Positions 1 to 29,056 of a stretch of DNA of 36,898 nt are shown here, one piece after another. The DNA is from a virus: the IMG/VR virus record IMGVR_UViG_3300044846_001855, positions 1 through 36,898 of that record. One strand, given 5' to 3'. A program made the position numbers and the translations under genes. Within the stretch, counting starts at the first letter, position 1, and the number at the start of each line of letters is the position of its first letter. Below the pieces are notes generated by a model. That model had not been told where the DNA came from. It saw only the letters and a program-made list of their open reading frames with translations, and made no database searches.

Positions 1-120
1 CACAATATCGAGGTCTAGCAGCTTTGTTTGCGGTAGCTCTTGGCCCCGTAGGGCCATAGAACGAGCGCGAGAGAGATATTCCCCACGCTCTAACCGCTTG
101 TCAGGGCGGTGTTGTTTCAT
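1..120 (-). CDS. 5' fragment (40 codons) of the HTH gene, a duplicate of 36772-36891 created by the end overlap. It is not a separate gene.
   Basis: The ATG at 118-120 (minus) has the same sequence as the ATG at 36889-36891. The ORF runs off the window start. Confidence 0.8.
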   Translation of the reverse strand, partial: MKQHRPDKRLERGEYLSRARSMALRGQELPQTKLLDLDIV

Positions 121-127
121 GCAAATA
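1..127. repeat. Terminal direct repeat copy 1, identical to 36772-36898. This is an end overlap of a circular or circularly permuted genome assembly.
   Basis: Read directly: both copies run cacaatatcgaggtctagcagctttgtttgcgg...ggcggtgttgtttcatgcaaata, and I compared them base by base. Confidence 0.9.
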
Positions 128-2312
128 GTCCTTGCTGCTCTTTTTGTGCGTCGCTGATGTTCTGGTGCGCAAGTTCCCAATACGCAGGCTTCAGCTCAGT
201 CCCAATGAACTTGCGGCCCATCTTGACTGCGCAATAGCCCTCGGAGCCAATGCCGGTGAAGGGGGAAAACACGGTATCGCCTTTGTTTGTCCAAAGGTGG
301 ATGCATCGCTCAATAACATCAAGTTGAAGCGGGCACATATGCTTCAGGTCGTTATCGTCACGCGCTGGCAGCTTGTTCAATGTGCGCGACTGGTTAATGT
401 CGTCCCAGATCGGGCTTGCATATTTCTGCCACATCATCACCGGCAGATCATCGCCGTGCGTCACACGTTCTTCAATCTCGCCGGGCTTGCGCATTGTCAC
501 CACGTAATCAGGCAGACCCATGCGGCTCATTGTGGAGTTCTCGCGGATGGTCTTGTGCAGCAAACCGAGTGCCTTTGTGCGCTGCATTGCCACTACGGGG
601 TCTTTCCAGATGACCACCTCGGAGTGGTAGATAAATCCTGCGTCTTGGAAAGCGCGGATAAGGTCGCCCCGGAAGTCACGCAAGCCAATGAAGCCTTGGC
701 GCATCTTGGTGGTTGGCAGGTTCATGCAATGGAATGAAACATTGCGCCCCGGCTTGATGACTCGGAAAAGCTCGGAAATCAAGAATTTAAGCTGTTGCAC
801 AAACTCCTCATCGTTGCGGCAGTTGCCCATGTCGTGGTCGCTGTTGGAATAAACAAACAAGTCCGCGAACGGGGGAGAAAAAACCGAGTAATCAATGCTG
901 TTATCAGCCATGCGGCGTGTCCATTTCACGCAGTCGCCCATGTGGACGGTGAATCCGTCGCCCTCGTATGTATCCTCACGGTACTCGTCTACGATGTTCT
1001 CTTGGCCTGCTAATTCTTTATTCATAATGTCTTTCATGTGTTCAATCATGTTGGCGCTCATGTCGTGGTGGTTTGCTTCTTTGCGTTTGATGTTTGCCAG
1101 AATCTGGCCTTCGTTCTCGGCGGTGAAGATATGCACTTGCACTTCACGCTTTTGACCAAAACGATAGCAGCGGCGCACGGCTTGATAGAACTTTTCAAAT
1201 GAGTCATCCAGCCCCACAAAAGCCATCCGTGCGCAGTGTTGCCAATTCATCCCGTAGCCTGCGATCTTTGGCTTGCTAACCATTACCCGCACTTCACCAT
1301 GCGCGAAGCCAATCAAGTTCTTTGTCTTGACTTCGGGGCTATCGGAGCCTTGCACGTTGACAGAGCCGGGGATTAGGCTTTTCAGCAACTCAGCCTCATC
1401 GTTCAAGTGGCACCAGATAAGCCAAGGCTCATCAGGCTCACCATTCACAATGTCTGCAAGGGCTTTGCATCGGGCTTCGATGCTGTCTCGCTGGGCTTTG
1501 CGGCGCTCGGCCATAGACTGGGCAGGGCGAGAAAACAATTCATCTCCCAAAGCCTCAGTTTGGACAACATGCTCATGGTAGTGCAGCGTCGGCAGGTCAT
1601 AGCGTGAGCCATCAAATCCAATATCGGCAGGACTGCGCAGGACAACGGCCCATGTTCCCATCCATTCCCAAAAACGAGACTGTCCCCAGCCCTTGAGAAT
1701 CCAAGTGCCCGTATCGCCTGCATCGTTAATGAAGTAAGTCGCCAGCATTTCAGTGCGGGTCATCACGCCCAAAAACTCGCATTGATTGCCGAGTTCTTCA
1801 AAGTCGTTGGGGCTAGGCGTAGCTGTGCAGCTTAGGCGGTAAGGCACGGCCTGAGACTGTTCAATGATCTTTGATCGCGTCTTTCCGTCGTGAGACTTTA
1901 GGATAGACGACTCATCCAAAACGATACCGGCCAGCTCTGCGAAGTTGATCGCATCCATGCGCTCATAGTTGGTAATCCATACGCCGGGGCCGCTAGGGGC
2001 TTCGCCTTGCGGGATTCGCTTCACTTCAATACCGAAGGTAGCGCCCTGCTCAATTGTCTGCTCAGACACTGCCAGCGGAGCCAATACAACCACAATGCCA
2101 CCGGTATGGGATTGAACCTCATCAGCCCAAGAAAGCTGCATCAGCGTCTTGCCAAGACCGGTATCAGCAAAGATAGCAGCACGGCCACGGCGCACGGCCC
2201 ATGAAACGATGGCGTGTTGAAAGTCGAATAGATGCTCGTTCAGTTCGCCCGGTGCATGTCCGGTTGCGACTTCGGCGCGTCGTTTGCTTTTTACAAAATC
2301 TTCGTAGTTCAT
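117..2312 (-). CDS. SNF2-family helicase/ATPase fused to a beta-class N4/N6 DNA methyltransferase (731 aa)
   Basis: The track ORF is 117..2321, whose first codon is GTG; the first ATG is at 2312. N-terminal helicase motifs: ADTGLGKT (I), VLDESS (II) and QAVRRCYRFGQKREVQV (SNF2 motif VI). C-terminal methyltransferase motifs: motif IV FSPPF, followed by AdoMet motif I FSPFTGIGSEG. The stop TGA overlaps the next ATG (ATGA at 117-120). Confidence 0.85.
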   Translation of the reverse strand: MNYEDFVKSKRRAEVATGHAPGELNEHLFDFQHAIVSWAVRRGRAAIFADTGLGKTLMQLSWADEVQSHTGGIVVVLAPLAVSEQTIEQGATFGIEVKRIPQGEAPSGPGVWITNYERMDAINFAELAGIVLDESSILKSHDGKTRSKIIEQSQAVPYRLSCTATPSPNDFEELGNQCEFLGVMTRTEMLATYFINDAGDTGTWILKGWGQSRFWEWMGTWAVVLRSPADIGFDGSRYDLPTLHYHEHVVQTEALGDELFSRPAQSMAERRKAQRDSIEARCKALADIVNGEPDEPWLIWCHLNDEAELLKSLIPGSVNVQGSDSPEVKTKNLIGFAHGEVRVMVSKPKIAGYGMNWQHCARMAFVGLDDSFEKFYQAVRRCYRFGQKREVQVHIFTAENEGQILANIKRKEANHHDMSANMIEHMKDIMNKELAGQENIVDEYREDTYEGDGFTVHMGDCVKWTRRMADNSIDYSVFSPPFADLFVYSNSDHDMGNCRNDEEFVQQLKFLISELFRVIKPGRNVSFHCMNLPTTKMRQGFIGLRDFRGDLIRAFQDAGFIYHSEVVIWKDPVVAMQRTKALGLLHKTIRENSTMSRMGLPDYVVTMRKPGEIEERVTHGDDLPVMMWQKYASPIWDDINQSRTLNKLPARDDNDLKHMCPLQLDVIERCIHLWTNKGDTVFSPFTGIGSEGYCAVKMGRKFIGTELKPAYWELAHQNISDAQKEQQGLFA

Positions 2313-2314
2313 AT

Positions 2315-2659
2315 TTAGCACCGAATCCCTTTGCTCTTAATGTGTGAATGGTCAGACCCCGGACGGTAAAAAGTAGGCTGCGGGTCGCCATCACCTGTAA
2401 CATAACGGCCCCGCCCGATAACGTACTGCCTCACCCCTGCAAGGTCTTTCTGGTCTAGCTTATTGCGGCCCAGCGTCGTGATGTGGTAAGCCTGCTCTGC
2501 CTCGAAACAATAGCCAGCCTCGCACATTTGATCGAGCCACGTTTTCAGAATGTCGGGGTGGATCTGGCTTCGGCGGTCACCGTGCGTGAAGTAGTTGGCG
2601 CGGCGGGGTGATTGTGCGATTGCTGTGAGCATGGTTCGCAGGCGTTCGTTGAGTTTCAT
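2315..2659 (-). CDS. Hypothetical protein (114 aa), first gene of the leftward early operon; possible winged-helix regulator
   Basis: An internal ATG (M24 of track ORF 2315..2728) is preceded by SD GGAGAG. The stop is 2 nt before the helicase-methylase ATG. Confidence 0.6.
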   Translation of the reverse strand: MKLNERLRTMLTAIAQSPRRANYFTHGDRRSQIHPDILKTWLDQMCEAGYCFEAEQAYHITTLGRNKLDQKDLAGVRQYVIGRGRYVTGDGDPQPTFYRPGSDHSHIKSKGIRC

Positions 2660-2707
2660 GTTCTCTCCGTGGTTAATAAGGCTTGAATGATTACACGATT
2701 CGGCGGG

Positions 2708-2760
2708 TTGTCTACTTAGGGTTTTCACCTATGTTCAGGCGTTTATTTCTGCTAGACAAT
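2708..2760 (+). promoter_or_regulatory. Divergent early control region. It contains palindrome TAGGGTTTTCACCTA (2717-2731), a -35-like TGTTCA (2732-2737), a 17-nt spacer and a -10 GACAAT (2755-2760) for the rightward operon. The flanking inverted TTGTCTA (2708-2714) / TAGACAA (2753-2759) pair is also part of it.
   Basis: Read directly. The same palindrome/-35/-10 layout recurs at three minus-strand sites (27225-27268, 30539-30582, 33996-34038). Confidence 0.45.
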
Positions 2761-2789
2761 CCATCACATCAACTAACCGGAGCGAGTAA

Positions 2790-3083
2790 ATGTACCTAGA
2801 CATCATCAATCAAACCTTCGCCGCTATTGGCAAAGTTCCTTTCACATCCCTGAGCGTTCCCTATGTGAGCTATCACACTAGCATCAGTGGCCGTGTGGCT
2901 CAATACGAGATGCAAGCCGTGTTTAACGACTACCACGGCGAAACAGCAGCACAAAACGCTTTTGTCGCAATGCTGGAAAAGAGCGAGTGCCCACTGGTCA
3001 AGGCTTACAAAGAGACGGTGCAGGCTTGCTTTGTGGCGCAGAACTTGGAAGAGTTGGAAGTTTTTACGGAGGAATCGAAATGA
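2790..3083 (+). CDS. Hypothetical protein (97 aa), first gene of the rightward operon
   Basis: ATG preceded by SD GGAG. The stop overlaps the next ATG (ATGA). Confidence 0.65.
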   Translation: MYLDIINQTFAAIGKVPFTSLSVPYVSYHTSISGRVAQYEMQAVFNDYHGETAAQNAFVAMLEKSECPLVKAYKETVQACFVAQNLEELEVFTEESK

Positions 3084-3394
3084 GCGAGCATACAAAAGGG
3101 CCGTGGGTTGCATTGCCTGAAGAGCGCGACAAGCCATACATCCGAATCAGGGGAACTGTGCTCGGTGGGCGTTACAAGATAGCGAACGTCTTGACGCCTG
3201 TATATGATGGCGTCCACGAAAGGGAAGCAAAAGAGACACGCGCCAACGCCCGACTAATAGCCGCAGCGCCTGAGCTTCTGGAGGCCTTGAAAGAGGTCTT
3301 CATTATTGGCGACCGGCTAGTAAGCGATGTTTACGGCGATGAGTTTGTAGAGAAGGCTCGCGCCGCAATCGCAAAAGCAGAAGGCACAAAATGA
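3080..3394 (+). CDS. Ead/Ea22-like phage protein (104 aa)
   Basis: The start MSEHTKGPW has SD GGAGGA and an ATGA overlap. The motif ANARLIAAAPELLEALKE is the pattern I associate with Ead/Ea22-like proteins (from memory). Confidence 0.65.
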   Translation: MSEHTKGPWVALPEERDKPYIRIRGTVLGGRYKIANVLTPVYDGVHEREAKETRANARLIAAAPELLEALKEVFIIGDRLVSDVYGDEFVEKARAAIAKAEGTK

Positions 3395-3480
3395 AATACA
3401 TCCGCCAATATCTGATCTACCGCCGCGCCGGTTTCACGGTGATCAACTCTCTCAAACGTGCTTGGAAGGTGTGGAAATGA
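3391..3480 (+). CDS. Mini-ORF of 29 aa (MKYIRQYLIYRRAGFTVINSLKRAWKVWK), translationally coupled at both ends
   Basis: My own translation. Its ATG overlaps the upstream stop (ATGA at 3391-3394) and its TGA overlaps the downstream ATG (ATGA at 3477-3480). It is below the ORF-track size cutoff. Confidence 0.4.
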   Translation: MKYIRQYLIYRRAGFTVINSLKRAWKVWK

Positions 3481-4127
3481 GCAATAAAGCCCTATGGGAT
3501 AGCGTCAAGGTTACAGACCCAAGCGCGGTAAAGCCCATCACAGGCAAGAGCTACAAGGGCGACAGCCCTAAGCCTTACTGGCTGATTGAACGCGCTACAG
3601 ACGTGTTTGGCCCTATTGGAATCGGCTGGGGTGTTGTGGTGAAGTCTGAGCGCTTTGAGCGTATGAGCGATACAGACGTTTTGCACGTTGCTGTAGTGTC
3701 CGTCTGGTATGTGCATAACGGTGTGCGCTCGGAAACCTTCGATCAAATGGGCGGCACAAAAGCCGCTTACATGACAAGCAAGGGCGTGTTGATGGTGGAT
3801 GAAGACGCCGGTAAAAAATCAGTGACTGATGGCATGGTCAAATGTCTGTCAATGATTGGTTTTGCTGGTGACATTTTCAGCGGTTTGTGGAATGACTCAA
3901 AGTATGTTGATTGGGCGCGTGAGCAATACGAGCCACCACAAAAGAAAGATCAAAAACTACAAGAGCTGCAAGAGAAGGCAATCAGCATCATTGCGCACGT
4001 CAAGGGCGGCAATGCGCGAGATGAGGCGCAAGCCCTGTCTAAGCTGAATGAGAAGGCTCTAAACGCCATTTGGGAACTGCTTGACGCAGAGACACAAGAC
4101 AAGTTATCGGAGGCTTGGCCAGCATGA
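3477..4127 (+). CDS. Putative Rad52/Sak-like single-strand annealing protein (216 aa)
   Basis: The motif PYWLIERATDVFGPIGIGWG resembles the Rad52-family motif (..FG..GW). The later DEDAGKKSVTDGMVKCLSMIGFAGDI resembles the conserved C-terminal SSAP block. The gene sits in synteny with Gp157-like and SSB genes. Confidence 0.65.
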   Translation: MSNKALWDSVKVTDPSAVKPITGKSYKGDSPKPYWLIERATDVFGPIGIGWGVVVKSERFERMSDTDVLHVAVVSVWYVHNGVRSETFDQMGGTKAAYMTSKGVLMVDEDAGKKSVTDGMVKCLSMIGFAGDIFSGLWNDSKYVDWAREQYEPPQKKDQKLQELQEKAISIIAHVKGGNARDEAQALSKLNEKALNAIWELLDAETQDKLSEAWPA

Positions 4128-4627
4128 CCGCGCTTTACAACCTTGCCAATCAGTATCTAGAGCTTGCTAATACGCTTGCTAACGGCGATTTTGACGCCGA
4201 GACAGTGGCAGACACCATCGAGGCCAGTGGCATCACTGATGAGCTATCCACAAAGGCGCAAGCCTTGGAATATGTCGCCCGTAGCTCTGAGGCTCACAAT
4301 GATGCTATTGATGCGGAGATTGAACGACTCAAGGCACTCAAAGAGCAGCGCACCAAGATAGCCGCAAACGTGCGCAAGTACATCTACGACAATATGCAAC
4401 GGATGCAGATTGAAAAGATTACCTGCCCACTGTGCGAAATGTCGATTGTGAAGAACCCGCCAGCGGTGGAAATGTACGACGCCATGAGCATACCTGCGGA
4501 CTACATGCGACAGCCTGACACGCCGCCGCCACAGCCCGACAAGGTGAAGATTCTGAAAGCACTCAAAGCCGGTGAAGAAGTGACCGGCGCACGACTAACC
4601 CAAACCACGCGACTGCGTATTAAATAA
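4124..4627 (+). CDS. Siphovirus Gp157-like protein (167 aa)
   Basis: An N-terminal coiled coil is followed by the C-terminal block SIVKNPPAVEMYD..IPADYM...PDKVKILKALKAGEEVTGARLTQTTRLRIK, typical of the Gp157 family. There is an ATGA overlap and SD GGAGG. Confidence 0.75.
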   Translation: MTALYNLANQYLELANTLANGDFDAETVADTIEASGITDELSTKAQALEYVARSSEAHNDAIDAEIERLKALKEQRTKIAANVRKYIYDNMQRMQIEKITCPLCEMSIVKNPPAVEMYDAMSIPADYMRQPDTPPPQPDKVKILKALKAGEEVTGARLTQTTRLRIK

Positions 4628-4638
4628 AGGAAACCAGA

Positions 4639-5112
4639 ATGAACAACATCACAATAGCCGGTCAACTTGGACGCGATGCGGAAGTGCGATACCTTCCGAA
4701 TGGCGACGCAGTGGCTAACTTCAGCGTTGCTGATTCGCAGGGCAAAGACAAGACCACTATCTGGTGGCGTTGCCAGTTGTTTGGCAAACGCGCTGAGTCG
4801 CTGTCGCAATATCTGACTAAGGGTCAATCCGTCACCGTGTCTGGAAACATCACAGAGCGCACCTATCAAAAGGATGGCGTAGAAAAGACGGCGATGGAAA
4901 TTCGTGTATCTGACGTTGCGTTGCAGGGTGGTCGCAAGGATGATTCACAACCGGCACCGCGCCAAGCTGCACCAAGCCAAGCACCACGGCCAGCACCTAG
5001 CCGCCAAGCGCCTGCGCCTCGGGGGTCACAGGGCAGCGGGTTTTCGGATATGGATGACGACATCCCATTCCGCGACCCTATGGCATATCGCGGCCATCAC
5101 TGGATTATCTGA
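4639..5112 (+). CDS. ssb: Single-stranded DNA-binding protein (157 aa) whose acidic DDDIPF tip is internal
   Basis: OB-fold N-terminus (MNNITIAGQLGRDAEVRYLPNGDAVANFSVA...WWRCQLFGKRAE), a Pro/Gln/Ala-rich linker and FSDMDDDIPF followed by 13 extra residues. Confidence 0.9.
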   Translation: MNNITIAGQLGRDAEVRYLPNGDAVANFSVADSQGKDKTTIWWRCQLFGKRAESLSQYLTKGQSVTVSGNITERTYQKDGVEKTAMEIRVSDVALQGGRKDDSQPAPRQAAPSQAPRPAPSRQAPAPRGSQGSGFSDMDDDIPFRDPMAYRGHHWII

Positions 5113-5124
5113 GGGTAAACACCT

Positions 5125-5289
5125 ATGGAACCAATCGACCCTCGCCTATACACTTTCTTGGAGGACGTTAAAGCAAACGTTCTACAAGCCAAACCAATCG
5201 AGGCACTGAGGGCGATTGCCCTTGATGCCCTACTACTTGCACAGGAGTTAGAAAATGGACAAGAGCGATCTGATAGTGATGAGGGCTAG
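5125..5289 (+). CDS. Candidate small ORF (54 aa, MEPIDPRLYTFLEDVKANVLQAKPIEALRAIALDALLLAQELENGQERSDSDEG)
   Basis: My own translation. A GAGGG lies 9 nt upstream. The sequence looks helical, but third-position GC is low. Confidence 0.35.
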   Translation: MEPIDPRLYTFLEDVKANVLQAKPIEALRAIALDALLLAQELENGQERSDSDEG

Positions 5290-5338
5290 TTTCCTCGCGG
5301 GTGTGGTTACTGTTTTGCTTTTGGTTTGGGGGAAGTGA
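5255..5338 (+). CDS. Candidate 27-aa hydrophobic peptide (MDKSDLIVMRASFLAGVVTVLLLVWGK)
   Basis: Strong SD AGGAG 7 nt upstream. The stop TGA (5336-5338) shares its last base with the ATG of the next gene (5338). Confidence 0.4.
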   Translation: MDKSDLIVMRASFLAGVVTVLLLVWGK

Positions 5339-5733
5339 TGACTGATCGAGAGCTACTAGAGAAAGCGGCTAAGGCTGCGGGGGTTTTCCTTACTCCAGAG
5401 ACGCTAAAAGAAGCGCTACCAAATTTGGAGTGGGACGAAGATTTAGAGACTTATCACACCCCTGGCGGCATGTCCGGCGCAGTTTTTTGGCGCGGCTATT
5501 CAGGGGAAATCAGCGGAACAGAACGAGAAGAATGGAACCCACTCACAGACGACGGCGACGCGCTGCGGCTGGCTCATGGGCTGAATGTCCCTGTATCTAT
5601 AGATATATCCAATGGATTGACAACGGTGTCAGGCTGGACTTTTGATATAGACGAACCACATGGAAATGACCCACTCGCCGCCACCCGCCGCGCCATAGTG
5701 AGAGCAGCAGCGGCTATCGGTGAGGCAATGTGA
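5338..5733 (+). CDS. Conserved phage hypothetical protein (131 aa)
   Basis: The ATG is internal to track ORF 5326..5733, whose first codon is TTG. The motif WNPLTDDGDALRLA recurs in small phage early proteins (from memory). Confidence 0.7.
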   Translation: MTDRELLEKAAKAAGVFLTPETLKEALPNLEWDEDLETYHTPGGMSGAVFWRGYSGEISGTEREEWNPLTDDGDALRLAHGLNVPVSIDISNGLTTVSGWTFDIDEPHGNDPLAATRRAIVRAAAAIGEAM

Positions 5734-5900
5734 TTCGCTGGTGTGCCGTGTGCGGAAAGAAAACCGAAGGGCCGCACCAGATCAAATTCGTTCTGGGCGG
5801 TCGGGCTTTGGTGTGTAAGTGGCACGGCTTGGCAAGGTCTGCGAAGGCATTGGCTAAATCAGTGAGATCTCAGCCTCGCGCCGAATCGTCAGCCCTCTAA
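5730..5900 (+). CDS. Candidate GTG-initiated zinc-ribbon protein (56 aa, VIRWCAVCGKK...LVCKWH...)
   Basis: GTGA start-stop overlap with the upstream gene and SD GGTGAGG 4 nt upstream. It has a CxxC...CxxH pattern and third-position GC of about 60 percent, like bona fide genes here. Its 3' end overlaps the convergent endolysin gene by 47 nt. Confidence 0.4.
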   Translation: MIRWCAVCGKKTEGPHQIKFVLGGRALVCKWHGLARSAKALAKSVRSQPRAESSAL

Positions 5901-6294
5901 GCACACGCCCCCCCGCTTTGTTCCATTTACGGAGTTCAGTGGGCACAGACTCCCAATCGCCTGCGTTCACCCTGCGCCGAAGGGTTGACGCCTTGAGGTT
6001 GCCGCCTCCGAGGTTGAAAGTGAAGTCAATAAGCGCGGCGACTCTTTCCGGCGTGTCGATCTTCGGGCATAGGCGCATCACTGTCGGCAGGTACTTTGTC
6101 CGCACCATCCACAAAAGCAGCTCCTCGGCGCGTTCTTTTGTGATCTTCGGGTCAGTCATCTTTACAGGTGCGCCGCCTTCGTAGTAGGTAGCCCCGTAAC
6201 CAATCGTAGGCACTCCAGCGGGGCAAAGGTAGGGGGTAAGGTACAAGCCCTCAAACCTACGCGCTAGAGCGGCTGCAATTTCGATTGAAGTCAT
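5854..6294 (-). CDS. Endolysin, GH24 phage lysozyme family (146 aa)
   Basis: The motif RRFEGLYLTPYLCPAGVPTIGYGAT carries the catalytic Glu and the TIGYG signature of T4/lambda-R-type lysozymes. There is an ATGA overlap with the upstream gene. Confidence 0.9.
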   Translation of the reverse strand: MTSIEIAAALARRFEGLYLTPYLCPAGVPTIGYGATYYEGGAPVKMTDPKITKERAEELLLWMVRTKYLPTVMRLCPKIDTPERVAALIDFTFNLGGGNLKASTLRRRVNAGDWESVPTELRKWNKAGGRVLRGLTIRREAEISLI

Positions 6295-6755
6295 TTTCCG
6301 CGCTTAAACAATGAACGGTCTGCCAAGTAAATGCCGAGAGCCGCACCAGATAGCGCGATTGTGTTTTCGCTCATGGCTATCGCTCCGAACTCATGCAGGG
6401 TCATCATCACTACGGCCCATGTAGCCACGGCGGGGCGAATGACTGCGTTCCAAGCATCAACCCAGACTAGGCCGGTCTTGGTTGCTGTCGCCTTCACAGC
6501 CTCTAGCCATCCCTGCGCTTCAATCTCACCAATAGCCGCCTCTGCCTGCACTTGGATGGTCTTGACGCCTAGCTCTGCCTGCACCGTGATAGCCTTTAGG
6601 TTTCTCTCATGCTGCGCAGCCTCTAGCGCGTTTTGCAGCTTCATCCGGTCTATTTCTTGCGCGTGGTCTTGCTTTTTGTTGAGGTAGGCGATTACCTCCC
6701 CGAAGATCATGCGGAAGACATTGCCGCCAAGGAATGACAAAAGGGCTGTAATCAT
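6291..6755 (-). CDS. Putative holin, multi-TM (154 aa)
   Basis: Hydrophobic N-terminus, a central helical region and C-terminal hydrophobic segments (IRPAVATWAVVMMTL, IALSGAALGIYL). It lies immediately upstream of the endolysin and resembles 3TM GTA-type holins (from memory). Confidence 0.55.
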   Translation of the reverse strand: MITALLSFLGGNVFRMIFGEVIAYLNKKQDHAQEIDRMKLQNALEAAQHERNLKAITVQAELGVKTIQVQAEAAIGEIEAQGWLEAVKATATKTGLVWVDAWNAVIRPAVATWAVVMMTLHEFGAIAMSENTIALSGAALGIYLADRSLFKRGK

Positions 6756-7159
6756 TTGGATTCCTCAATTGTTACTAGCTTTGTTTCCTGCGTCCACAAC
6801 GCATGGCACTTGTGCAGAGAGTACAGGCTAAACACTTCATTCGCACCGCCTTTGATGACCCAAGGGCCAAACGGTTGACTAGCCCCACGAATGACAGGGC
6901 GCGAGACATAACCGGCGCTGCGGTCTAAAAACTCGACCTCTAGCGCTTCGCCATCGCGTGTAAACGCCTGAACGTCTTGCAACAATACGCAGGGCCGTGC
7001 CTTATCAATCGTGCCAGATACCACCAAATTAGCGCCATATCGTGTAATCTCTGTTACTGTAAATTTCTCCACTACGGGGAAAAATTGATTCTCGAGAAAC
7101 TGAGCGGCGAAAAATAAAACCGCTGCTACGATCAAAAAAGAGAGTTGTTTTGCAATCAT
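6752..7159 (-). CDS. Membrane-anchored protein (135 aa), lysis-cassette associated, function unknown
   Basis: N-terminal signal-anchor (LSFLIVAAVLFFAAQF) followed by a beta-rich ectodomain. ATGA overlaps occur at both ends. Confidence 0.7.
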   Translation of the reverse strand: MIAKQLSFLIVAAVLFFAAQFLENQFFPVVEKFTVTEITRYGANLVVSGTIDKARPCVLLQDVQAFTRDGEALEVEFLDRSAGYVSRPVIRGASQPFGPWVIKGGANEVFSLYSLHKCHALWTQETKLVTIEESK

Positions 7160-7398
7160 GGCTTGTACCCATGGTTAATGGCCCACTCCCTGAGCATGTA
7201 AAAGAGTCCAAGAATGAAGGCCCAAGCTAGACCGCCGAGCGACTTCTCGATCACGGCCTCCCATCTTTTTATTTTTTGGGCCTCTTTCTTAAGTGCAAGT
7301 TTTACGTATCGCACTTCGTCTTCAGTCAAAACAGGCTCTGACGCCTTAACGGCGGAAACCACCGCTGCGACTAACTCCGCTCGTTCTTCAGGTGTCAT
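7156..7398 (-). CDS. Small protein with a C-terminal TM segment (80 aa), lysis-cassette associated
   Basis: A charged helical N-terminus is followed by GGLAWAFILGLFYML. An ATGA overlap links it to the downstream gene. Confidence 0.7.
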   Translation of the reverse strand: MTPEERAELVAAVVSAVKASEPVLTEDEVRYVKLALKKEAQKIKRWEAVIEKSLGGLAWAFILGLFYMLREWAINHGYKP

Positions 7399-7422
7399 TT
7401 TGAAGCCTGTTTTTCTATTTGT

Positions 7423-9444
7423 TTACAAGTTACCTTCGGAAACCCAAGTGCCGGGGTTCCCTGAAACTGTGCATCGCCATCCTTTTGGCTGACCGACAAC
7501 TGGGACTGACTGAATAACGCGATCACCAGCCGCCCACAAGCCAGACCCAGACGGCCCAGAGTTTCCATATTTCGAGATTATGACCCCTGTACCTGCGTTA
7601 TTTTCCACGGTTCCTGCAAGGTCGTTTGATTCATCCGCAATGGTTCCGCTGTTGGAGCCAGCCGCGCCAGTAAACACAATGGATGACCCGCTGAGACTAG
7701 AGAAAAACCTGTTAGCAGTAAGTTTTACTCGGGTGCAGCTATCTTGGTAATAGACGGGGCCAGTAGAGGACAGGTTGTTATTGGATACAGATGCGCCAGT
7801 CAACTTGCTAAGGTACATGCCAATATTAGACAAGCCTGAGACGATGTTTCCAGTGATAACCACATCACTCATTGTTCCGCCTGTCACGGCTTGGATAATC
7901 ATTCCATTTACCGCGCCACGGATGCGGTTACCCACAACAGATACGCCGCTGATAGGCACCGAGGCAGCAATCTGGATTGCGTTGTAATTAGGGTTGACGT
8001 GTCGAATTAGATTGTTTTTCACCTGCAAGCCGTCTGCATTGGCGGCGTAAATAGCCTCTCCGCGCACGGCAGTGGTTCCGGTAGATTGGATGATGTTTCC
8101 CTCTACCAACACAGGAACGCCGCAAGTCTGCACGGAAATGCCGGGGCCACGTTGCGCGGTGATGTTGTTGTTGGCTACGATTACCTCACTAATCAGGCCG
8201 GTAGGGTATCCAGTTGTGTCGCCTGTCGCTACACCAATCGCTGCAACCGCCTGCGTTTCAAACGAGGTCGTAGAGATACAGCAATTACTGATGGTGTTGT
8301 TGGTGACGATTGCGCCGCCTGTTGACTGAATATAAATCCCATGACCGCTTTGTCCGCTTAGAGCGGTTCCGGTAATGTCAAACACACGATTGCCGGTGAT
8401 TGTGGTTTGCGTGTTGTAAGCGGTAGTTACGTAGGCAATGATTCCAGCATAACGAGCGTTTGCAACATAGTTATTCAACACCTTATTACCGGTCGGTGTC
8501 CCGCTTGTGTAGGGGTCTTGAATAAAAATACCGTGTTCAGAGTCTGCTATGCAGTAGTTGTTCTCAACCGTGTTGTTGTTTGACGTGTTTTGAATTGCAA
8601 CTTGCGCGCTGTCTTGCACTGTGCCAAACCAAGAAGAAAAGCGGCAACGGCGAACGACGCAATCCGAAGATTCAAAAATTGCAACGCCCCAATAGCCCAT
8701 GTTGAACATTCCCACGTTCTCTACGGTGCAGTTCCTGCACTCGTTTTCCATAAGCACCCCAGCCTTATATGCTGTTGCGTTGGTTTGAGAGACTGTCGAT
8801 ATTTTCAGGTCGCGAACCGTGACGCCGGAAACACCATTTAGATAAAAGCCGTTAATAGAGCCATCAACCATCTGAATATGGGAGGCCAAGCCATCCCCGA
8901 AAATCAGGGTATTGCTTCTAGGTGATACGCTTGAGTTAATGCGATACGACACATCAGGCGTCGGGAAATAAACGCTCAAGGACTCGTCTAGCGCTTTTTG
9001 AATGGCGGCAGTGTCGTCGGTGACGCCATCACCAACGGCTCCAAAGTCTTTAACACTTACAGACTCCCTGAGCTTTGTTTCCACAGTAGTAGTAACTGCA
9101 CCAGTTCCATCGGGAATGTACGTAACTCCGCTGGAATCCGAGCTAATTCCGCTTGCCTTCAGCGTTGACCAGATAAGCGATTGGGTTTTGCTTTTGACCA
9201 TTAACGAGTAGTCAACCGCATTGGCAAAAACCTGAGCGGGTGAGCCGTTGCGCGATATGTAGCCGTTAATAGTTCGCAGTGGCTGCAATGCCGGAATTGT
9301 TAGATCGCTATCCCAAAAAACGGCGATAGGATTGGATTCTGCGTTCATCCCAGCAACACCGACATAAACAAAACCGGATTGCAAAGGGGCACCTGAAACA
9401 TCGCTGTAAACTGGAAACGGAGGGGTAACGGTAATCGCGCTCAT
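7423..9444 (-). CDS. Tailspike: P22 gp9-like head-binding N-terminus plus a right-handed beta-helix depolymerase domain (673 aa)
   Basis: VSVKDFGAVGDGVTDDTAAIQKAL is the hallmark start of pectate-lyase-type beta-helix domains. The core is long and Gly/Asn/Val/Thr-rich and repetitive. The N-terminal pattern SGFVYVGVAGMNAESNPIAVFWDSDLTIPALQPL resembles the P22 tailspike N-domain. SD AAGGAG is present. Confidence 0.85.
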   Translation of the reverse strand: MSAITVTPPFPVYSDVSGAPLQSGFVYVGVAGMNAESNPIAVFWDSDLTIPALQPLRTINGYISRNGSPAQVFANAVDYSLMVKSKTQSLIWSTLKASGISSDSSGVTYIPDGTGAVTTTVETKLRESVSVKDFGAVGDGVTDDTAAIQKALDESLSVYFPTPDVSYRINSSVSPRSNTLIFGDGLASHIQMVDGSINGFYLNGVSGVTVRDLKISTVSQTNATAYKAGVLMENECRNCTVENVGMFNMGYWGVAIFESSDCVVRRCRFSSWFGTVQDSAQVAIQNTSNNNTVENNYCIADSEHGIFIQDPYTSGTPTGNKVLNNYVANARYAGIIAYVTTAYNTQTTITGNRVFDITGTALSGQSGHGIYIQSTGGAIVTNNTISNCCISTTSFETQAVAAIGVATGDTTGYPTGLISEVIVANNNITAQRGPGISVQTCGVPVLVEGNIIQSTGTTAVRGEAIYAANADGLQVKNNLIRHVNPNYNAIQIAASVPISGVSVVGNRIRGAVNGMIIQAVTGGTMSDVVITGNIVSGLSNIGMYLSKLTGASVSNNNLSSTGPVYYQDSCTRVKLTANRFFSSLSGSSIVFTGAAGSNSGTIADESNDLAGTVENNAGTGVIISKYGNSGPSGSGLWAAGDRVIQSVPVVGQPKGWRCTVSGNPGTWVSEGNL

Positions 9445-13333: not shown

Positions 13334-13760
13334 GATGAAACTCCTTCAAATAGTCCTCTAGGGATTCGCCGTAGAGACTTAAAACGATATGCGCGTTTTG
13401 TGTTGCAAACTCGGTGCCTCGCGTGAGTTGCACGGCCATCAACACAAGGTCGTAGAACCCTGCGCGCCAGTTGAATGATTTAGCGTCTGCGTTTCCTTCA
13501 CGCTCTACGGTGTCGGATGCTTGCCATTTGAGAATTGCCGAGCCGATTAGCGGGGCGAGTGTGCTGATGTTGTCCCGATAGAACGGGTTTTGACCCATAC
13601 ACACTAGGGTATTCCAGATAACCGCGTTTAGGTCGTCGCGCTTAACTTCGTCACCATCGGCAACGTCATCAAATAGCTGGATGGCTTGGAATAGCATCAA
13701 AAGCCAATCCACCGCATGGGGCGGGAGAATCTTCTCTAAATTGGCTTTGAGTGAGTCCAT
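13326..13760 (-). CDS. Hypothetical helical protein in the P22 gp14 position (144 aa)
   Basis: Clean ATG and synteny. It is preceded by the only 74-bp gap in this part of the late operon. Confidence 0.6.
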   Translation of the reverse strand: MDSLKANLEKILPPHAVDWLLMLFQAIQLFDDVADGDEVKRDDLNAVIWNTLVCMGQNPFYRDNISTLAPLIGSAILKWQASDTVEREGNADAKSFNWRAGFYDLVLMAVQLTRGTEFATQNAHIVLSLYGESLEDYLKEFHHA

Positions 13761-14166: not shown

Positions 14167-15338
14167 TGTTGCACCTGATCGACGGAAACAATACAAGCGG
14201 GAGCGGCGGGGGCAAATGCCGTCGCAGCGAAGGGCGACAAGGTGACAGCCGTGCTATCAGCCGCCCACATCAATTCTATGTAGTCATTAGCAGCAAGCGA
14301 GAAAACCATGCTCCGCGATGGTGTCGCCAATGCGGAGTTGCTTTCTAGTGAAACTTTGAACGAGCTATTCGCAATATCTACACCGTTTTTACGAAACCAT
14401 AACCAGACGTTTTTAGTGCTTGCGCTCGTTGATGCAAGCTGAAACGCACAGTTGAACTCGTACAGGCCAGAGTGAGCCACGATTAAGCGTGAGCCGCTGC
14501 CAATGGTTACCCCGTTAGACACTGATGCAGAATCAAGCCCGATTGCATAGGCCGTGTTAATCGCTGCGGGTGTTTGCGATGTAGTCTTGTTGAACGTGCC
14601 GTAATACTTTTGCTGTTCAATTACCGGACGGACAAAAATAGAACCAGTCGCACCCACGGATAGAACCGCGCCCACCGGCACGGAAACGCTCGGGGCGGTT
14701 GGTTTGATGTTTGTTAACCCGCCTGCCGTTGTTGGGCTTGCGTAGAGAATGTCGCCAACTAGCCACGTTTCCCCATAAGGTATGCCTGTCGTGTTGATTT
14801 CACGCACAGCACCCAATACGGTAGCGCGGCCATTCCCTCCGGTTGGTATGTCTTGCGTGAGCACCCCAATCGCGTAAAGCGAAGGCATAGACCCGTCAGC
14901 AAGATATGGAGAGACTTCAATCAACCCAGACGCACCAGAGAAGCCCACCACGGAGCCATTGGGCAGAATCGAGCCGGTATTGTTGGTCACCCTGATGTAA
15001 GCCTCTAGGCCCACTTGCTGAGTAACGCCTCCGGTGTGGTGGATGTTGATGGTGTCGTCGTCATCATTCCACGCCACTCGCGCCACTTTGTTGACGTGCT
15101 TTGGTCGCTTGGTGAAGTCGATGTAATCCAATGCGGAGTGCATCGGGGTCGCCTCTGCACGGTTCTCAGCCACGCCTGCGGAGTAACCAGACTCAACGAT
15201 TAGCTGCGTAAGGTTCGCAACGTCATCAGGGGTTAGGTTCGCAGTGACGCGCAAAAGACGTTCAAACGCCTTAATAGTCTCATGGTCTGGAAGAAACTTT
15301 GCAAGCTGGTTGCGGGTTATTGGCTTGTCAGTGGTCAT
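14163..15338 (-). CDS. Tail needle-position fibre with a C-terminal C1q/TNF-like jelly-roll knob (391 aa)
   Basis: It directly follows the gp10-like gene, as gp26 does in P22. The C-terminal 130 aa (SGLYEFNCAFQLAS..NVWLWFRKNGVDIANS..MVFSLAANDYIELMW) shows the spacing pattern of C1q/TNF-like domains. Confidence 0.55.
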   Translation of the reverse strand: MTTDKPITRNQLAKFLPDHETIKAFERLLRVTANLTPDDVANLTQLIVESGYSAGVAENRAEATPMHSALDYIDFTKRPKHVNKVARVAWNDDDDTINIHHTGGVTQQVGLEAYIRVTNNTGSILPNGSVVGFSGASGLIEVSPYLADGSMPSLYAIGVLTQDIPTGGNGRATVLGAVREINTTGIPYGETWLVGDILYASPTTAGGLTNIKPTAPSVSVPVGAVLSVGATGSIFVRPVIEQQKYYGTFNKTTSQTPAAINTAYAIGLDSASVSNGVTIGSGSRLIVAHSGLYEFNCAFQLASTSASTKNVWLWFRKNGVDIANSSFKVSLESNSALATPSRSMVFSLAANDYIELMWAADSTAVTLSPFAATAFAPAAPACIVSVDQVQQ

Positions 15339-20147: not shown

Positions 20148-21416
20148 TTAGGATTGCGAGAAGAGAACGATACCCGCCATCTGTGGCTGAGTCATCACCA
20201 CGCCAAAACGGGTATCCCAGCGATACTTGGTTTTCATGGTGTCAATGTCGTATTGTTTTTGCAACACGATCTCGATACCTTGGTCGGTGGTAGCGCGCAT
20301 CACAGCAGCACCCGCATCGGTTGGCACGGCATAGCGTCCGGGCAACAATTCGATGGCGTCCTTTTGCCAGAATGGGTTCACGTTGGCGCGCACAGTGTTC
20401 AACCACACGATAGCGCTGTTAGACGCCTTGGTGTTGATCTTGCAGTTTTGGTACTGAGCGGCGGCAGCGTTTGCCACTTGGTTAGTGATGATCGGGGGAG
20501 AGATCACCATAGTAGTGCCGTTGGTCACGGAGATGACGCGGAAGGTCTTGAGCTGGCCGGTATCGCCCTTGGTGATGTGATGCACAGCGTTCAAGCCAGC
20601 GATAGTGAAGCAGTCACCGGCAGCCACGTTAGTAGTGCTAGAAACGGTCACGGTCTGATAGCGGTTGTCAACGTTGGACACTTCGCCTGTTGCGGCTGTA
20701 GAAGTCGCTTTAGGTGTGTAGTGGTTGTTACCTGCGTCCAGTGTGTTGATGGTGATAGACGCACCACCGGCAGCGGCTGGCAAGCTGTTTGCGTAGTCCA
20801 GCTTGTAGGTGTCGAACGATGCCAACTGACCAATGTATGCCTTCTCGTAAGCTGTCAGGGCTTTGGGGGTCAAAGTCTGACGGCCTGCCAAGTTGGAAGC
20901 CATGCCGTTGTAGTCGCGTGTGGACAAAGCCATGTAACGGTCAAACGCTTGAACGCCTTGCTCGTTCATGATGGCTTCAGCTTGCGCGATGTCATCAAAA
21001 CCGGATGCGGCAGAGGTGCGCTTCACGACCAGAGTGCCTTGCTGTGCGGCCACATTCATGACGGCCACGTTCACATCAGACGCCAGCTTCTGCGCAGCAG
21101 CTTCGCCCAGTCGGCCTTCTTGCAGCAGGTCGCGCAATTGGGTTGCGGTCAGGATTGCAGTGGCGTGTTTAGCGAAACCAATGGTGGAGGGTACAGACAA
21201 TTGAGTCTGGTCGTTGAAGTTGGAGGTTGCGTCAGTGCCGTCGTAAGACTGGGCAATGTACGGCTGCGGACGCCAGATGGTGTCGTTTGTCCGCTCCATT
21301 GTCACGGAGTCGGTGTTGTACTTGTTGACGTTGCGGGAAAGAACGAGCTGGTCGTTGAACTTTTCGAGCACGTCCTCGAAGGCTACGCGCTCTTCTTTGC
21401 TGAATTGATTGGCCAT
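20148..21416 (-). CDS. Major capsid (coat) protein, P22 gp5-like (422 aa)
   Basis: Colinear motifs with P22 coat as recalled (NDTIWRPQPY vs SNTIWMPVEQ; AAQKLASDVNVAVMNVAAQQGTLVV vs [25 protein letters not shown]). It follows the scaffold gene. Confidence 0.88.
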   Translation of the reverse strand: MANQFSKEERVAFEDVLEKFNDQLVLSRNVNKYNTDSVTMERTNDTIWRPQPYIAQSYDGTDATSNFNDQTQLSVPSTIGFAKHATAILTATQLRDLLQEGRLGEAAAQKLASDVNVAVMNVAAQQGTLVVKRTSAASGFDDIAQAEAIMNEQGVQAFDRYMALSTRDYNGMASNLAGRQTLTPKALTAYEKAYIGQLASFDTYKLDYANSLPAAAGGASITINTLDAGNNHYTPKATSTAATGEVSNVDNRYQTVTVSSTTNVAAGDCFTIAGLNAVHHITKGDTGQLKTFRVISVTNGTTMVISPPIITNQVANAAAAQYQNCKINTKASNSAIVWLNTVRANVNPFWQKDAIELLPGRYAVPTDAGAAVMRATTDQGIEIVLQKQYDIDTMKTKYRWDTRFGVVMTQPQMAGIVLFSQS

Positions 21417-21557: not shown

Positions 21558-22415
21558 TTACTTTCGGTTGTTTCGTTTGTACGCGAGTACCTTGGACATA
21601 TCGCCGGTTTTCTCAGCTTCGGCGCGTAGTCGTTCAAGGGTTGAATCAATCGCACCAGAGGCTCGGCCTGTTCCTTGAATGACCTTCTCAGGCGGGGGCG
21701 GGGCTTTGCGGTTAGTTACTTTCAATTGTGTCTCCAGTTTTGCGATTGCAAAGGCGAACTTTACGGGGTCTTTGATTCCTGCGAGTTCTTTCGCCTTGGC
21801 GGGGTTCTTGCCTAGCGCGTAGATGATGAGCGCGGGATTGTCTGCGCCCTGCACAAGAATGCCTTGTTGTGTGACGTTCAGGGTTTCCTGTGCCACTGCC
21901 TCAGCGTCTTCGTAGTCCTTGACCTTCAGCGACTCTTTAGACTTCGCATAGGCGTCTAGGCGGTCTTTCCATGCCTGCTCTTGTGCATCGCGCTCGCGTT
22001 TCTGTTCGTTCTCTTGTTGCTCAATCTGGCGCTTGCGGTCGTGCCATTCCGTCAGGCGTTGCTCAAACACCTCGGCGTCATAGTCGATGCCATCATCAGA
22101 CAATGAAGGCTTCTTACCTAGCGTGATCGTCGGTTTATCGGCGGGTTTGCTGATTGCCGCTTTAAGTTCGCGGTTTTCCTTTTGCAGCTCACGATGAGAG
22201 CGGCGCAGTTCTCGCACCCACTCGGGGGCCTGCTCTTTGGCTTCTTCGATTGGCTCGTCACCAATGCTGATGACTACCTCGTCAGACTCTGCCGATTCTT
22301 CGGGCGCTTCGGTGACTTCCTCTACCGGCTCTGCCACTTCCTGCTCGACCTCCAGCACCTCAGTGCCGGATTCGTCTTGTGTTTCGTTTCGCAGTACAAA
22401 CTTCTTCAATCGCAT
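21558..22415 (-). CDS. Scaffolding protein (285 aa)
   Basis: It lies between portal and coat. The sequence is highly acidic and helical with a basic C-terminal tail, as in P22 gp8. SD GGAGAAG is present. Confidence 0.7.
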   Translation of the reverse strand: MRLKKFVLRNETQDESGTEVLEVEQEVAEPVEEVTEAPEESAESDEVVISIGDEPIEEAKEQAPEWVRELRRSHRELQKENRELKAAISKPADKPTITLGKKPSLSDDGIDYDAEVFEQRLTEWHDRKRQIEQQENEQKRERDAQEQAWKDRLDAYAKSKESLKVKDYEDAEAVAQETLNVTQQGILVQGADNPALIIYALGKNPAKAKELAGIKDPVKFAFAIAKLETQLKVTNRKAPPPPEKVIQGTGRASGAIDSTLERLRAEAEKTGDMSKVLAYKRNNRK

Positions 22416-22436: not shown

Positions 22437-24524
22437 TTAAAGAGGCTGCGCGGATACCTCATTCGGGCTGACGACTACCGCATTAACCTCTGGGGGTTGC
22501 GGCGATTGCCCAAATTTATCAATGACCTCCATTGCGGTTCGCACTTCCGATGCGTCAATGTTGGTCATGGTTTCGATTGTCTTTGCCTCGGTCAATTCGG
22601 CATCTTTGATGGTCTTGACTGTCTGCGCGTTCTTCAATGCTGCGTTAGCGCTTGCTTCCTGCGCGGCGGCTTGCATGTAGATTGTATTGGCGTCAGGCTG
22701 AGCACTGTCCTTGGCTTCCTTGAGTTGCTTGGCTTCTTCCTCGGTAGGCTTCACAACGCCCATGTTCAGCAGCTTGCGGCGGAAATAGTCGCGTACTTCT
22801 TCGATGCCCTCGCCTTCCATGTTCATCATTGCCATCGCTCCCAAGACTTGTTTAGTCTCTTGGTCTTCAGTGATCGCGGCCATTCCAGTGAGTGCGCGGA
22901 CGGTAGACGCACGTTTAGAGCTAGACGACGGGCCTACATCCACAGTCACATCAAACTGAGCCGAGGATAGGTCATTTTCCATTTCCTGCTCACCGGACTC
23001 TGCCATCATGGGGCGCATTAGCTCTACGCTGGTCATCTCGCCTTGTGAGCCGATTGATTTCATCTTGCGGCCCTTCTCGACGTACACATCACGGGCCATA
23101 GATAACCAGATTTCACCGCAACGGCGCACGGCTTTGGACATATTGGACACGTAGATAAACGTCTGCATATCTAGGCGCTGCTGAATCATCTCAACGGCCT
23201 TGCCTGAGATGTTGCTCACCATCTTGTCACCTTGCTGCTGATTGCCTAAGACGTCCTGAATGTCTTGCTCTGTGATCTGCAACAGTGCGGCCATTGCTGG
23301 CGGGATTTGTGGCGGCTTGGTGTATCCGATTGGGCCTGCAACTGTCGGTTGCCCGTTGGCGTCAAGAATCGGGTTTACCAACAGATACGGATAGTTCTTC
23401 AGGTTGTCCTCGGACCACATGATCTGGTGCCCTGCTACCTGCTCAGGCGTCAGAATGGGCTTCTCCACGCTAGACAGTGCGCTGATTTCGCCCAGCTTGG
23501 AGAGTTGCATGTTCTTCAGGCGCTGAGAGTCCTTAGCCAGTCGCACATGGCCCATGCATCGCTCTACGTTGTCCACAAACCAGCGCTTACCGTAGACCGG
23601 CACGATAGGGATGCAGCGGCCTGCAATGTAGCCACAATCCTCCAATACGCCACCACCGGATAGGATGTACTTGTGAACTCGCTTGCGTTTGACCTTCTTC
23701 TGGCGGACTTCACGGCTACCAATAGCGGCCAGCGTTTCCTCTAGGTTGTCGTCATTCTCAAAGTCTGCGTCGGTGTAGCGTTCCTCGGTTCCGTCTAGCG
23801 CTTGGAAGATGCGGACAGTCTCGCCCACTTCCTCAACCTTGTAATACTCGGCAACATAAACCACGTCAGGCGTTGCCCAATCAAATTCGAGCTGCTGAAT
23901 GTCTTTCGGCCAGCTTGCGGGGTCGTCGTTGTACTGCTCTTTGTATGCCTCAATCGTCATCGAAGTGATGACAAAGCACTTTTTAGCGTCGGCCTTGTCT
24001 TGTCGCTTGGCGTTCAAGTCAAAGAAAACAGAGCTATCAGCGTCGAAGATTGGCTCGATGCGGATTCGCTGTTTTTCGTTCTCGTCGTCTTCCTCATCCT
24101 CATAGCATGTACGCAAGCGCCACGCACCAAAGCCACCGCCTACAGCTTCCTCAAAAGCGTTGTCGTAGGCTTCCTCGGCTCCTGAGTCCTGCTCGTCTGC
24201 GCGGTAGAGTCCGTCGCAAGTGTCGGCCAGTTTGTCGTACTCGTTACCCTCTTTGCTCAGGAAGTCAACGGTAATCCGGTTGTTGCGGTACTCGGAGATG
24301 ATGCGCAATACTGCAAGGTGAATCTTGTTGACCTCAAACTTAGGCTTATTGGCGAACTGCTCACCAAGAGCGCCTTCCCACTGTGCGCCTGCGAGTGAGT
24401 AAAACCGGCGGTCTTGCAATGCCTGCAAGCGCTCATCTCGCATAGCGCCTTGGATGTTGTCAAACTCTGCCACGGCTTCGGCATGAAGGTTTGATAAGCG
24501 CTGCTCTAGTGTTAAACGTGCCAT
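22437..24524 (-). CDS. Portal protein, P22 gp1-like (695 aa)
   Basis: Size, position after TerL and an N-terminal pattern similar to the P22 portal (..DRRFYSLAGAQWEG..). The long C-terminal helical region fits a barrel-type extension. Confidence 0.85.
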   Translation of the reverse strand: MARLTLEQRLSNLHAEAVAEFDNIQGAMRDERLQALQDRRFYSLAGAQWEGALGEQFANKPKFEVNKIHLAVLRIISEYRNNRITVDFLSKEGNEYDKLADTCDGLYRADEQDSGAEEAYDNAFEEAVGGGFGAWRLRTCYEDEEDDENEKQRIRIEPIFDADSSVFFDLNAKRQDKADAKKCFVITSMTIEAYKEQYNDDPASWPKDIQQLEFDWATPDVVYVAEYYKVEEVGETVRIFQALDGTEERYTDADFENDDNLEETLAAIGSREVRQKKVKRKRVHKYILSGGGVLEDCGYIAGRCIPIVPVYGKRWFVDNVERCMGHVRLAKDSQRLKNMQLSKLGEISALSSVEKPILTPEQVAGHQIMWSEDNLKNYPYLLVNPILDANGQPTVAGPIGYTKPPQIPPAMAALLQITEQDIQDVLGNQQQGDKMVSNISGKAVEMIQQRLDMQTFIYVSNMSKAVRRCGEIWLSMARDVYVEKGRKMKSIGSQGEMTSVELMRPMMAESGEQEMENDLSSAQFDVTVDVGPSSSSKRASTVRALTGMAAITEDQETKQVLGAMAMMNMEGEGIEEVRDYFRRKLLNMGVVKPTEEEAKQLKEAKDSAQPDANTIYMQAAAQEASANAALKNAQTVKTIKDAELTEAKTIETMTNIDASEVRTAMEVIDKFGQSPQPPEVNAVVVSPNEVSAQPL

Positions 24525-26220: not shown

Positions 26221-26224
26221 GATT

Positions 26225-26861: not shown

Positions 26862-26887
26862 AGGGAGATAATGAGCCGCCCTTTGTT

Positions 26888-29053: not shown

Positions 29054-29056
29054 GCC

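Follow-up and report, generated by a model that had tools for sequence, protein, structure and literature searches.

The window, meaning the whole stretch of viral DNA analysed here (36,898 nt), has identical ends, with positions 1-127 repeated at 36772-36898 (127 nt), and this terminal identity indicates that the genome is circular and complete, with 36,771 bp. Scans against Pfam and PHROGs, in which 38 window ORFs were compared with Pfam and the structural genes with PHROGs only, identified the phage as a P22-like podovirus. The minus strand encodes the terminase large subunit (TerL, 24547-25776), the portal (22437-24524), the scaffold (21558-22415), the coat (20148-21416), ejection proteins, a tail spike and an endolysin (5854-6294). 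It also carries a replication block with an O-like protein (35368-36006) and a DnaB-like helicase (34036-35016), and many small genes. The plus strand holds a recombination operon for an exonuclease, Gp157 and SSB (2790-5900). A leftward series on the minus strand starts at 2659 with a 114-aa ORF (2315-2659), continues with a SNF2-helicase/N6-methylase fusion (117-2321) and crosses the circle junction into 36891; as the genome is circular, ORF 36622-36891 lies directly downstream of the helicase-methylase gene. The scans of the complete genome found no phage RNA polymerase, sigma factor, integrase or CI-type repressor, no CI/Cro pair is present in the window, and no endonuclease partner for the methylase was found in the genome. 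A megablast search with the first 20 kb gave no match to a cultured phage.

Four copies of a short palindrome, TAGGG-N4/5-CCCTA or a near variant of it, are located at gene boundaries, although only about 5% of the genome is non-coding by a rough count from the ORF list. Dyad i (TAGGGTTTTCACCTA, 2717-2731) is a 15-mer with one mismatch and is common to two divergent promoters. The other three are the exact matches in the window: dyad ii (TAGGGTAAACCCTA, 34025-34038), whose first three nucleotides are the TAG stop of the DnaB-like helicase gene (34036-34038); dyad iii (TAGGGTTTCCCCTA, 30569-30582), which opens in the same way with the TAG stop of ORF 30580-30852; and dyad iv (TAGGGTAAACCCCTA, 27254-27268), the centre of which holds the TAA stop of a 36-codon ORF. 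Shuffled sequences are expected to contain 0.02 exact palindromes, and none of 100 shuffles reached three; a chance origin of the dyads in the window is excluded. All four dyads are followed on the coding strand by a -10-like GAYAAT at a distance of 23-24 nt. When up to two mismatches were allowed throughout the window, a GAYAAT 22-25 nt downstream occurred essentially at these four sites only and always on the coding strand, each site being listed under overlapping registers with gaps of 3-5 nt; the sole other GAYAAT flagged lies 1 nt past a two-mismatch site at 5125-5111. Two further one-mismatch dyads lie within genes (13359-13373 and 36562-36576), neither of them with a correctly spaced -10, and about two one-mismatch dyads are expected by chance according to our own calculation. 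The original prediction of four sites sharing one layout (palindrome, -35-like hexamer and GAYAAT), of stop codons built into three of them and of a frequency above that of shuffled sequence is hereby confirmed, and all four sites were re-found at their positions.

The overlap of three dyads with stop codons at module junctions, as well as the occurrence of such cassettes at places where gene content differs between relatives, might be understood if the palindrome were not a protein site at all but served either as a hairpin in the RNA, terminating or processing transcripts at gene ends, or, at the boundaries of modules, as a linker for recombination. The dyad hairpins, however, have stems of 5 bp, folding energies of -6 to -8.4 kcal/mol and z-scores of -0.85 to -1.85, and they are followed by no U-tract. 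A 5-bp stem with no T-run falls short of an intrinsic terminator, the terminator scan does not list the dyads, and Rfam gave no match. A terminator or RNA role is unlikely because the hairpins are weak, are without U-tracts and match no Rfam family, and neither an RNA nor a linker function explains the exact phasing of 23-24 nt or the use of a dyad in two directions. We consider these functions very improbable in themselves, and they likewise take only a small share when the candidate readers of the dyad are set side by side.

The promoters linked to the dyads were then located at the heads of the operons. P(i) (TGTTCA, 17 nt, GACAAT; 2732-2760, plus strand) heads the recombination operon 2790-5900, and orthologous cassettes are found in the related contigs L026, L035, L150-L156 and L159. 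P(ii) (TTCACA, 16 nt, GATAAT; 33996-34023, minus strand) scored 10 of 12 in the promoter scan and is kept in L035, L068, L086, L110, L151, L152 and L156. P(iii) (TTCGCA, 17 nt, GACAAT; 30539-30567, minus strand) is followed by ATCAACAAC, a GGAG and an ATG. The first gene after it (29834-30511, minus strand) encodes a YdcK-type beta-solenoid protein with nine repeats, with homologues in phages whose hosts range widely, among them Streptococcus, Liberibacter, Curvibacter and Mycobacterium. The late promoter P(iv) (TACGCA, 17 nt, GATAAT; 27225-27253, minus strand) heads the packaging, structural and lysis operon of about 21 kb, from TerL, portal, scaffold and coat to the endolysin (5854-6294), and it has orthologous late cassettes in L003, L086, L110, L165, L168 and L169. 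A leader of the form ATCAAC(A/T)AC..(C)CGGAG precedes the ATG at three of these four promoters (2764-2785 on the plus strand, 30533-30512 and 27219-27196 on the minus strand). Most family cassettes have this leader too, as does MW202710 (L205, minus strand at about 31124 and plus strand at about 27973). Possibly it is a conserved element of the initial transcript or an enhancer of translation.

A fifth promoter shares dyad i. Reading the minus strand from this dyad, AG is followed by TAGACA (2714-2709), 16 nt, TG-extended AATCAT (2692-2687), GGAG and the ATG at 2659. This early promoter, P_E (2687-2714, minus strand), scored 9 of 12 with TG present and heads the long leftward operon, the first gene of which is ORF 2315-2659. 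The inverted TAGACAA that had been noticed beside the dyad thus proved to be the -35 element of a conserved leftward early promoter. The distance from dyad i is 23 nt to GACAAT on the rightward side and 24 nt to AATCAT on the leftward side, so that one dyad serves two divergent promoters with the same geometry. The equal geometry on both sides suggests the same regulatory sign and speaks against the earlier proposal of opposite effects of one protein on the two operons.

A candidate sixth site, with a dyad at 5111-5125 (GAGGGTAAACACCTA), 23 nt and TACACT (5111-5154, plus strand), lies where the SSB gene stops and ORF 5125-5289 starts. It is kept in L150-L152, L155, L156, L159, L026 and L035, with TACACT or TATGAT at the same offset of 23 nt; the stretch is coding, and its role as a promoter site is possible but uncertain. 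Within ORF 5125-5289 another palindrome, AGGGCGATTGCCCT (5209-5222, plus strand), has a 6-nt centre and a GAAAAT 28 nt on. This palindrome is kept in all relatives having the ORF, for which coding constraint may be the explanation.

All five promoters keep A2 and T6 of the -10 and a spacer of 16-17 nt, as sigma70-type promoters do, and two of the five, P(ii) and P_E, passed a 9-of-12 scan for sigma70 sites. The -35 hexamers of the GAYAAT promoters match TTGACA at only 3-5 of 6 positions, the best being the TTCACA of P(ii) (5/6), and none of these promoters has a TG. Compared with dinucleotide-preserving shuffles, consensus-like sigma70 sites are few, with 3 versus 8.0 in 26000-36898 and 1 versus 5.8 in 1-8000, and two of the four that were found are dyad-linked. 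With the fifth, leftward promoter on dyad i, every recognisable promoter carries the dyad; since consensus-like promoters are otherwise scarcer than in shuffles, the five dyad-linked promoters head every transcription block.

The conservation of this arrangement was evaluated in family loci gathered with helicase homologues, by a pattern scan and by searches with ORF 2315-2659 and ORF 27374-27625. Among 162 oriented dyad contexts with up to one mismatch, 69 have a -10-like hexamer at exactly 23 or 24 nt, compared with about 2.8 expected from a background of 0.0085 per position. The loci contain 72 distinct cassettes, 61 of a main class and 11 of an early class. At least five dyad-linked promoters in the window genome are accompanied by about 70 in related uncultured phages. 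In the main class, the -10 is mostly GAYAAT, with a few of TATGAT, TACCAT or TATCAT type, there is no TG, the -35 is a weak T..(A/G)CA, and the leader ATCAACAAC..CCGGAG often follows. In the early class, TG is always kept before AAT(C/G)AT, and the early promoters mostly have a 15-bp dyad with one mismatch (TAGGTG... or ...CTACCTA). Across promoter classes and orthologous groups the spacer sequences are unrelated, whereas the dyad, its distance and the -10 are kept, and several family dyads serve two divergent promoters. The prediction of a regulon-like set of sigma70-type promoters is thus supported, each promoter having a dyad near -43, and the expected conservation of the dyad in relatives was found in the form of a promoter set that is kept while the spacers differ.

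The dyad consensus is TAGGG(T/G)-WW(W)-(A/C)CCCTA. At its centre some sites have TTTC and others TAAA, which is TTTA on the opposite strand, so the same A/T-rich core occurs in either orientation. The presence of both orientations implies that the element is read without polarity, as by a homodimer, and points to a symmetric dimer as the probable binder.

The distribution of the dyad outside these cassettes was also evaluated. The strict cassette including the leader occurs in the family of the window only (17 stretches). A search with the helicase yielded 28 viral contigs, of which only the two closest (93-94% identity) have the dyad; helicase relatives of 75% identity or less are without the post-helicase intergenic region and without the dyad. 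The nearest portal relatives, MW202867 and MW202475, are also without it, and no other repeated palindrome of comparable kind was found in the dyad-free relatives. In MW202710, which has no homologue of either the 2315-2659 or the 27374-27625 protein, the GACAAT/GATAAT boxes and the ATCAACAAC leader are kept and the dyads are degenerate, indicating that the dyad is dispensable in at least one lineage.

If the -10 is assumed to cover -12 to -7, the dyad extends from about -50 to about -36, with its centre at -42.5 or -43.5. The dyad adjoins a weak -35, with a spacing that varies by no more than 1 nt, and this is the arrangement of activators making contact with sigma region 4 and alpha. The motif, its fixed spacing, its conservation and its symmetry are direct observations; the start sites, the binder, and activation as opposed to repression, we infer, the last from the position of the dyad. 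The reading that we prefer, and judge to be moderately probable, is that a dimer bound at about -43 activates these sigma70-type promoters. A symmetric dimer would sit on the dyad directly upstream of the -35 and recruit or stabilise the host sigma70-type RNA polymerase. The GAYAAT promoters would be weak alone and helped by the dyad-binding protein, one such promoter standing before each transcription block, namely the recombination, post-helicase, middle and late structural ones. The early promoter would probably fire unaided at the start of infection, and the others would wait for, or get a boost from, the dyad-binding protein. The early promoter is probably independent because of its extended -10 (TGnAATCAT); an extended -10 (TGn) is known to drive transcription without a -35 hexamer or an activator (PMC4390567).

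The same dyads could instead be operators of a repressor, in a genetic switch or a shut-off, with the bound protein lowering all promoters. A 14-bp dyad has the size and form of the operators of HTH repressors, even the earliest promoter, for which no phage product should be required, has the dyad, and in the lineage of L200 two perfect dyads and a partial repeat are clustered before the late genes like multipartite operators. Against this, the dyad never overlaps the -10 or the spacer and merely abuts the -35, and its distance from the -10 is constant within 1 nt over about 70 promoters, which is needed for activation contacts on one face of the helix but not for occlusion. The core promoters are apparently too weak to require repression, and no integrase or CI-like gene was found in the genome. 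Based on these points, repression appears unlikely.

The proposed activation from this position has several parallels, of which the closest is the Mor/C system of phage Mu. At the middle promoter of Mu, the -35 contact is replaced by a Mor dimer, which occupies a 16-bp element centred at -43.5 that contains two 5-bp inverted repeats (PMC4390567). Mor/C promoters have a usable -10 and a poor -35, are transcribed by the host sigma70 polymerase and carry one site type at several promoters (PMC4390567; PMC2582627), and Mor and C bind as tetramers according to a 2025 preprint. The present promoters are similar in that the dyad of 14-15 bp, 23-24 nt upstream of the -10, has an inferred centre at -42.5 or -43.5, and in that the -10 (GAYAAT) is recognisable and the -35 poor. 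They differ in half-site sequence, in that the earliest promoter also has a site and in that one site can serve two divergent promoters. Moreover, no Mor/C protein was detected in this genome, as the Pfam family Mor (PF08765) gave no match in the 38 window ORFs, which include almost all ORFs of the non-structural region. As no Mor/C protein is encoded, the dyad element is not a member of the Mor/C system.

Concerning class II activation by CRP/FNR proteins, the 5-N4/5-5 palindrome resembles the 5-N4-5 FNR box and likewise abuts or overlaps the -35 region, and the activator would here be host-encoded. The inferred centre, which is uncertain by about 1-2 bp, lies 1-2 bp upstream of the canonical -41.5, and the half-site TAGGG(T/G) does not match CRP/FNR consensus half-sites such as TTGAT and TGTGA; to our knowledge, TAGGG fits no consensus of the CRP/FNR family. 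Cyanophage promoters with NtcA sites are a precedent for a phage borrowing a member of this family from its host. In phage lambda, a CI dimer bound at OR2 near -42, beside a weak -35, contacts sigma region 4 and activates PRM. The dyad near -42 next to a weak -35 is similar here, but the lambda sites are also repressor operators that overlap a divergent promoter, whereas the present dyad overlaps neither core promoter. A literature search with the exact motif strings returned only unrelated eukaryotic papers. The cis-regulatory logic is known in kind (Mor/C-, CI/PRM- and class II-like), and this instance is new. What distinguishes it is the coverage of all promoters of the genome, the bidirectional single sites and the recurrence in lineages without a common regulator. 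The data also provide a promoter map for uncultured freshwater-type P22-like phages, with five to six promoters per genome and one motif.

The protein question raised by this map concerns the reader of TAGGGT-WW-ACCCTA. Of the five small HTH proteins originally proposed as binders, three are excluded or disfavoured by comparative genomics: ORF 36622-36891 is absent from the dyad-bearing relatives L026, L035 and L068, ORF 29057-29332 is present only in the window and L159, and L155 has a different ORF at the place of 36256-36465, to which tblastn detects no homology. The two that stand, 2315-2659 and 27374-27625, are kept across the family and missing in a second dyad-bearing lineage. The small candidate proteins received no assignment from PDB sequence searches or from Pfam at relaxed thresholds.

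The best phage-encoded candidate is the predicted product of ORF 2315-2659 (114 aa, minus strand), the first gene of the early operon. In its AlphaFold model, residues 1-70 form an N-terminal winged helix of good confidence (pLDDT about 80-88) and the tail, with the invariant C-terminal motif RPGSDHSHIKSxG, is disordered; the best structural matches are ArsR, PadR and MarR regulators. The gene adjoins the divergent control region, the family is present with adjoining dyads in every window-family contig covering the early region (down to 48% identity), and all five strict-cassette contigs of at least 37 kb encode a homologue, namely a perfect co-occurrence of dyad and protein within the family of the window. 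This protein might bind the dyads, activate the other promoters and autoregulate its own in a Mor-like or controller-protein-like cascade. Restriction-modification controller (C) proteins are small Xre-type HTH proteins encoded first in a methylase operon, with a palindromic box upstream of their own promoter, and they act on their own operon only. The 2315-2659 gene similarly precedes the helicase-methylase fusion and has a dyad upstream; unlike C proteins, its product has a winged helix with a disordered tail and no HTH_3 match, the genome has no endonuclease, and the dyad is genome-wide.

Several observations weaken this possibility. The Foldseek E-values of the structural matches are only about 0.03, the putative DNA-reading helix (residues 35-48) is the least conserved part of the domain, and the lineage of L200, L120 and L202 has perfect dyads at the same spacing without a 2315-2659 homologue. 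In addition, DNA methylase, helicase or ParB-type genes always follow the 2315-2659 gene, and the RPGSDHSHIKSxG motif also occurs on unrelated N-termini beside a DpdA-like gene; both hint at a role of the protein in DNA modification. Within the family, the co-occurrence of dyad and protein fits a phage binder and shared ancestry equally. Taken together, we consider it rather doubtful that the 2315-2659 product is the binder. If it were, an unannotated family of about 110 clusters would gain a function.

Clustered at 50% identity, this family comprises about 110 representatives (E up to 0.001), all without annotation, and tblastn gave no match in cultured phages. A profile search of genome contigs with the family returned matches to the C-terminal motif only, in two metagenome-assembled contigs. 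RPGSDHSHIKSxG ends proteins with a different N-terminus in the metagenome-assembled contigs L163 (156-452) and L164 (7815-8105); a LuxR-type HTH ORF precedes the motif protein in both, and a DpdA-like ORF follows it in L164. The tail may thus be a portable interaction motif linked to DNA modification.

The second candidate binder, ORF 27374-27625 (minus strand), encodes an 83-aa winged-helix protein, possibly a late-gene regulator, and always lies directly before the late promoter. All family contigs covering that promoter have it in synteny, and it shows a clear HTH pattern with a weak wHTH Pfam match, and the lineage of L200 has an unrelated 99-aa winged-helix-like ORF at the same place. Its identity is 66-99% in the closer family contigs but only 39-46% in the more distant members, where the start of the recognition helix varies, although the dyad is invariant. 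No homologue is detectable in L064, L200 and L120, a distant homologue in L175 has no dyads nearby, and the dyads of the early promoters would be unexplained by the product of a middle operon. That this protein binds the dyads is improbable when judged by itself, and hardly less so when the candidate binders are weighed together; some other phage protein is a little less unlikely, though still doubtful.

A further comparison concerned pattern-scan contigs with hardly any genes in common with the window; several of them have at least two perfect dyads of this kind. One lineage among them, the second lineage, comprises L064, L107, L200, L120, L201 and L202, where L064, L107 and L200 represent one phage, L107 and L200 being taken from one 35,953-bp contig and L064 being a near-identical contig of 10.9 kb. 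Its dyads lie 23-24 nt from GACAAT, CATAAT, GAGAAT or TAGAAT. The early promoter, at a Cro-like gene, reads TAGGGAAACTACCTA, g, TTGTAA, 17 nt and TAGAAT, and the 15-mer dyad variant ...CTACCTA is also found at the early promoter. L200 covers the entire non-structural part of this phage, starting where the lysis genes end and reaching the terminase, and shares only SSB, ORF 5326-5733, the N-terminus of Rep and TerL with the window. Family HMMs of 2315-2659 and of 27374-27625 gave no match in the non-structural region of the second lineage at E up to 10, and neither did an HMM of 106 sequences of 90-130 aa (2315-2659 homologues and representatives). Profile comparison detected no homology between the late winged-helix proteins of the two lineages, nor between the 2315-2659 family and a 113-aa ORF of L200.

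As the same dyad and spacing recur across lineages without a shared regulator, a host-encoded factor is the simplest and most economical binder, and we regard it as a serious possibility, though at somewhat below even chances. The alternative of a winged-helix phage protein with unchanged specificity but with a sequence too diverged to be detected is less likely than a host factor. With a host factor as the binder, the motif could help to connect these phages with their host and would show that their programme depends on one host activator. A broader and more tentative reading is that one factor, host-encoded or at least not derived from a shared phage gene, would be the master activator of all promoters from early to late in at least two lineages, with an off-consensus 15-bp site reserved for the early promoter and single sites driving divergent promoters. 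Should this be true, the whole temporal programme would hang on one borrowed protein, with core elements and site quality determining the strength of each promoter.

Two further arrangements of palindromes were observed in the contigs compared. In L200, a stretch of about 50 bp (14297-14347, equal to 4459-4509 of L107) contains two perfect dyads together with a partial TAGGGTTTAAAC repeat; it is located just after the 99-aa winged-helix-like ORF and just before the late genes, and this cluster resembles a multipartite operator. The unrelated viral contigs L043, L083, L092, L132 and L144 contain 4-9 copies of another 18-bp palindrome, GTTAGGGA-NN-TCCCTAAC, several of which lie about 15-35 nt upstream of start codons in L144 (2668-11376); they look like the sites of a phage regulon of their own, in which the half-site is similar.
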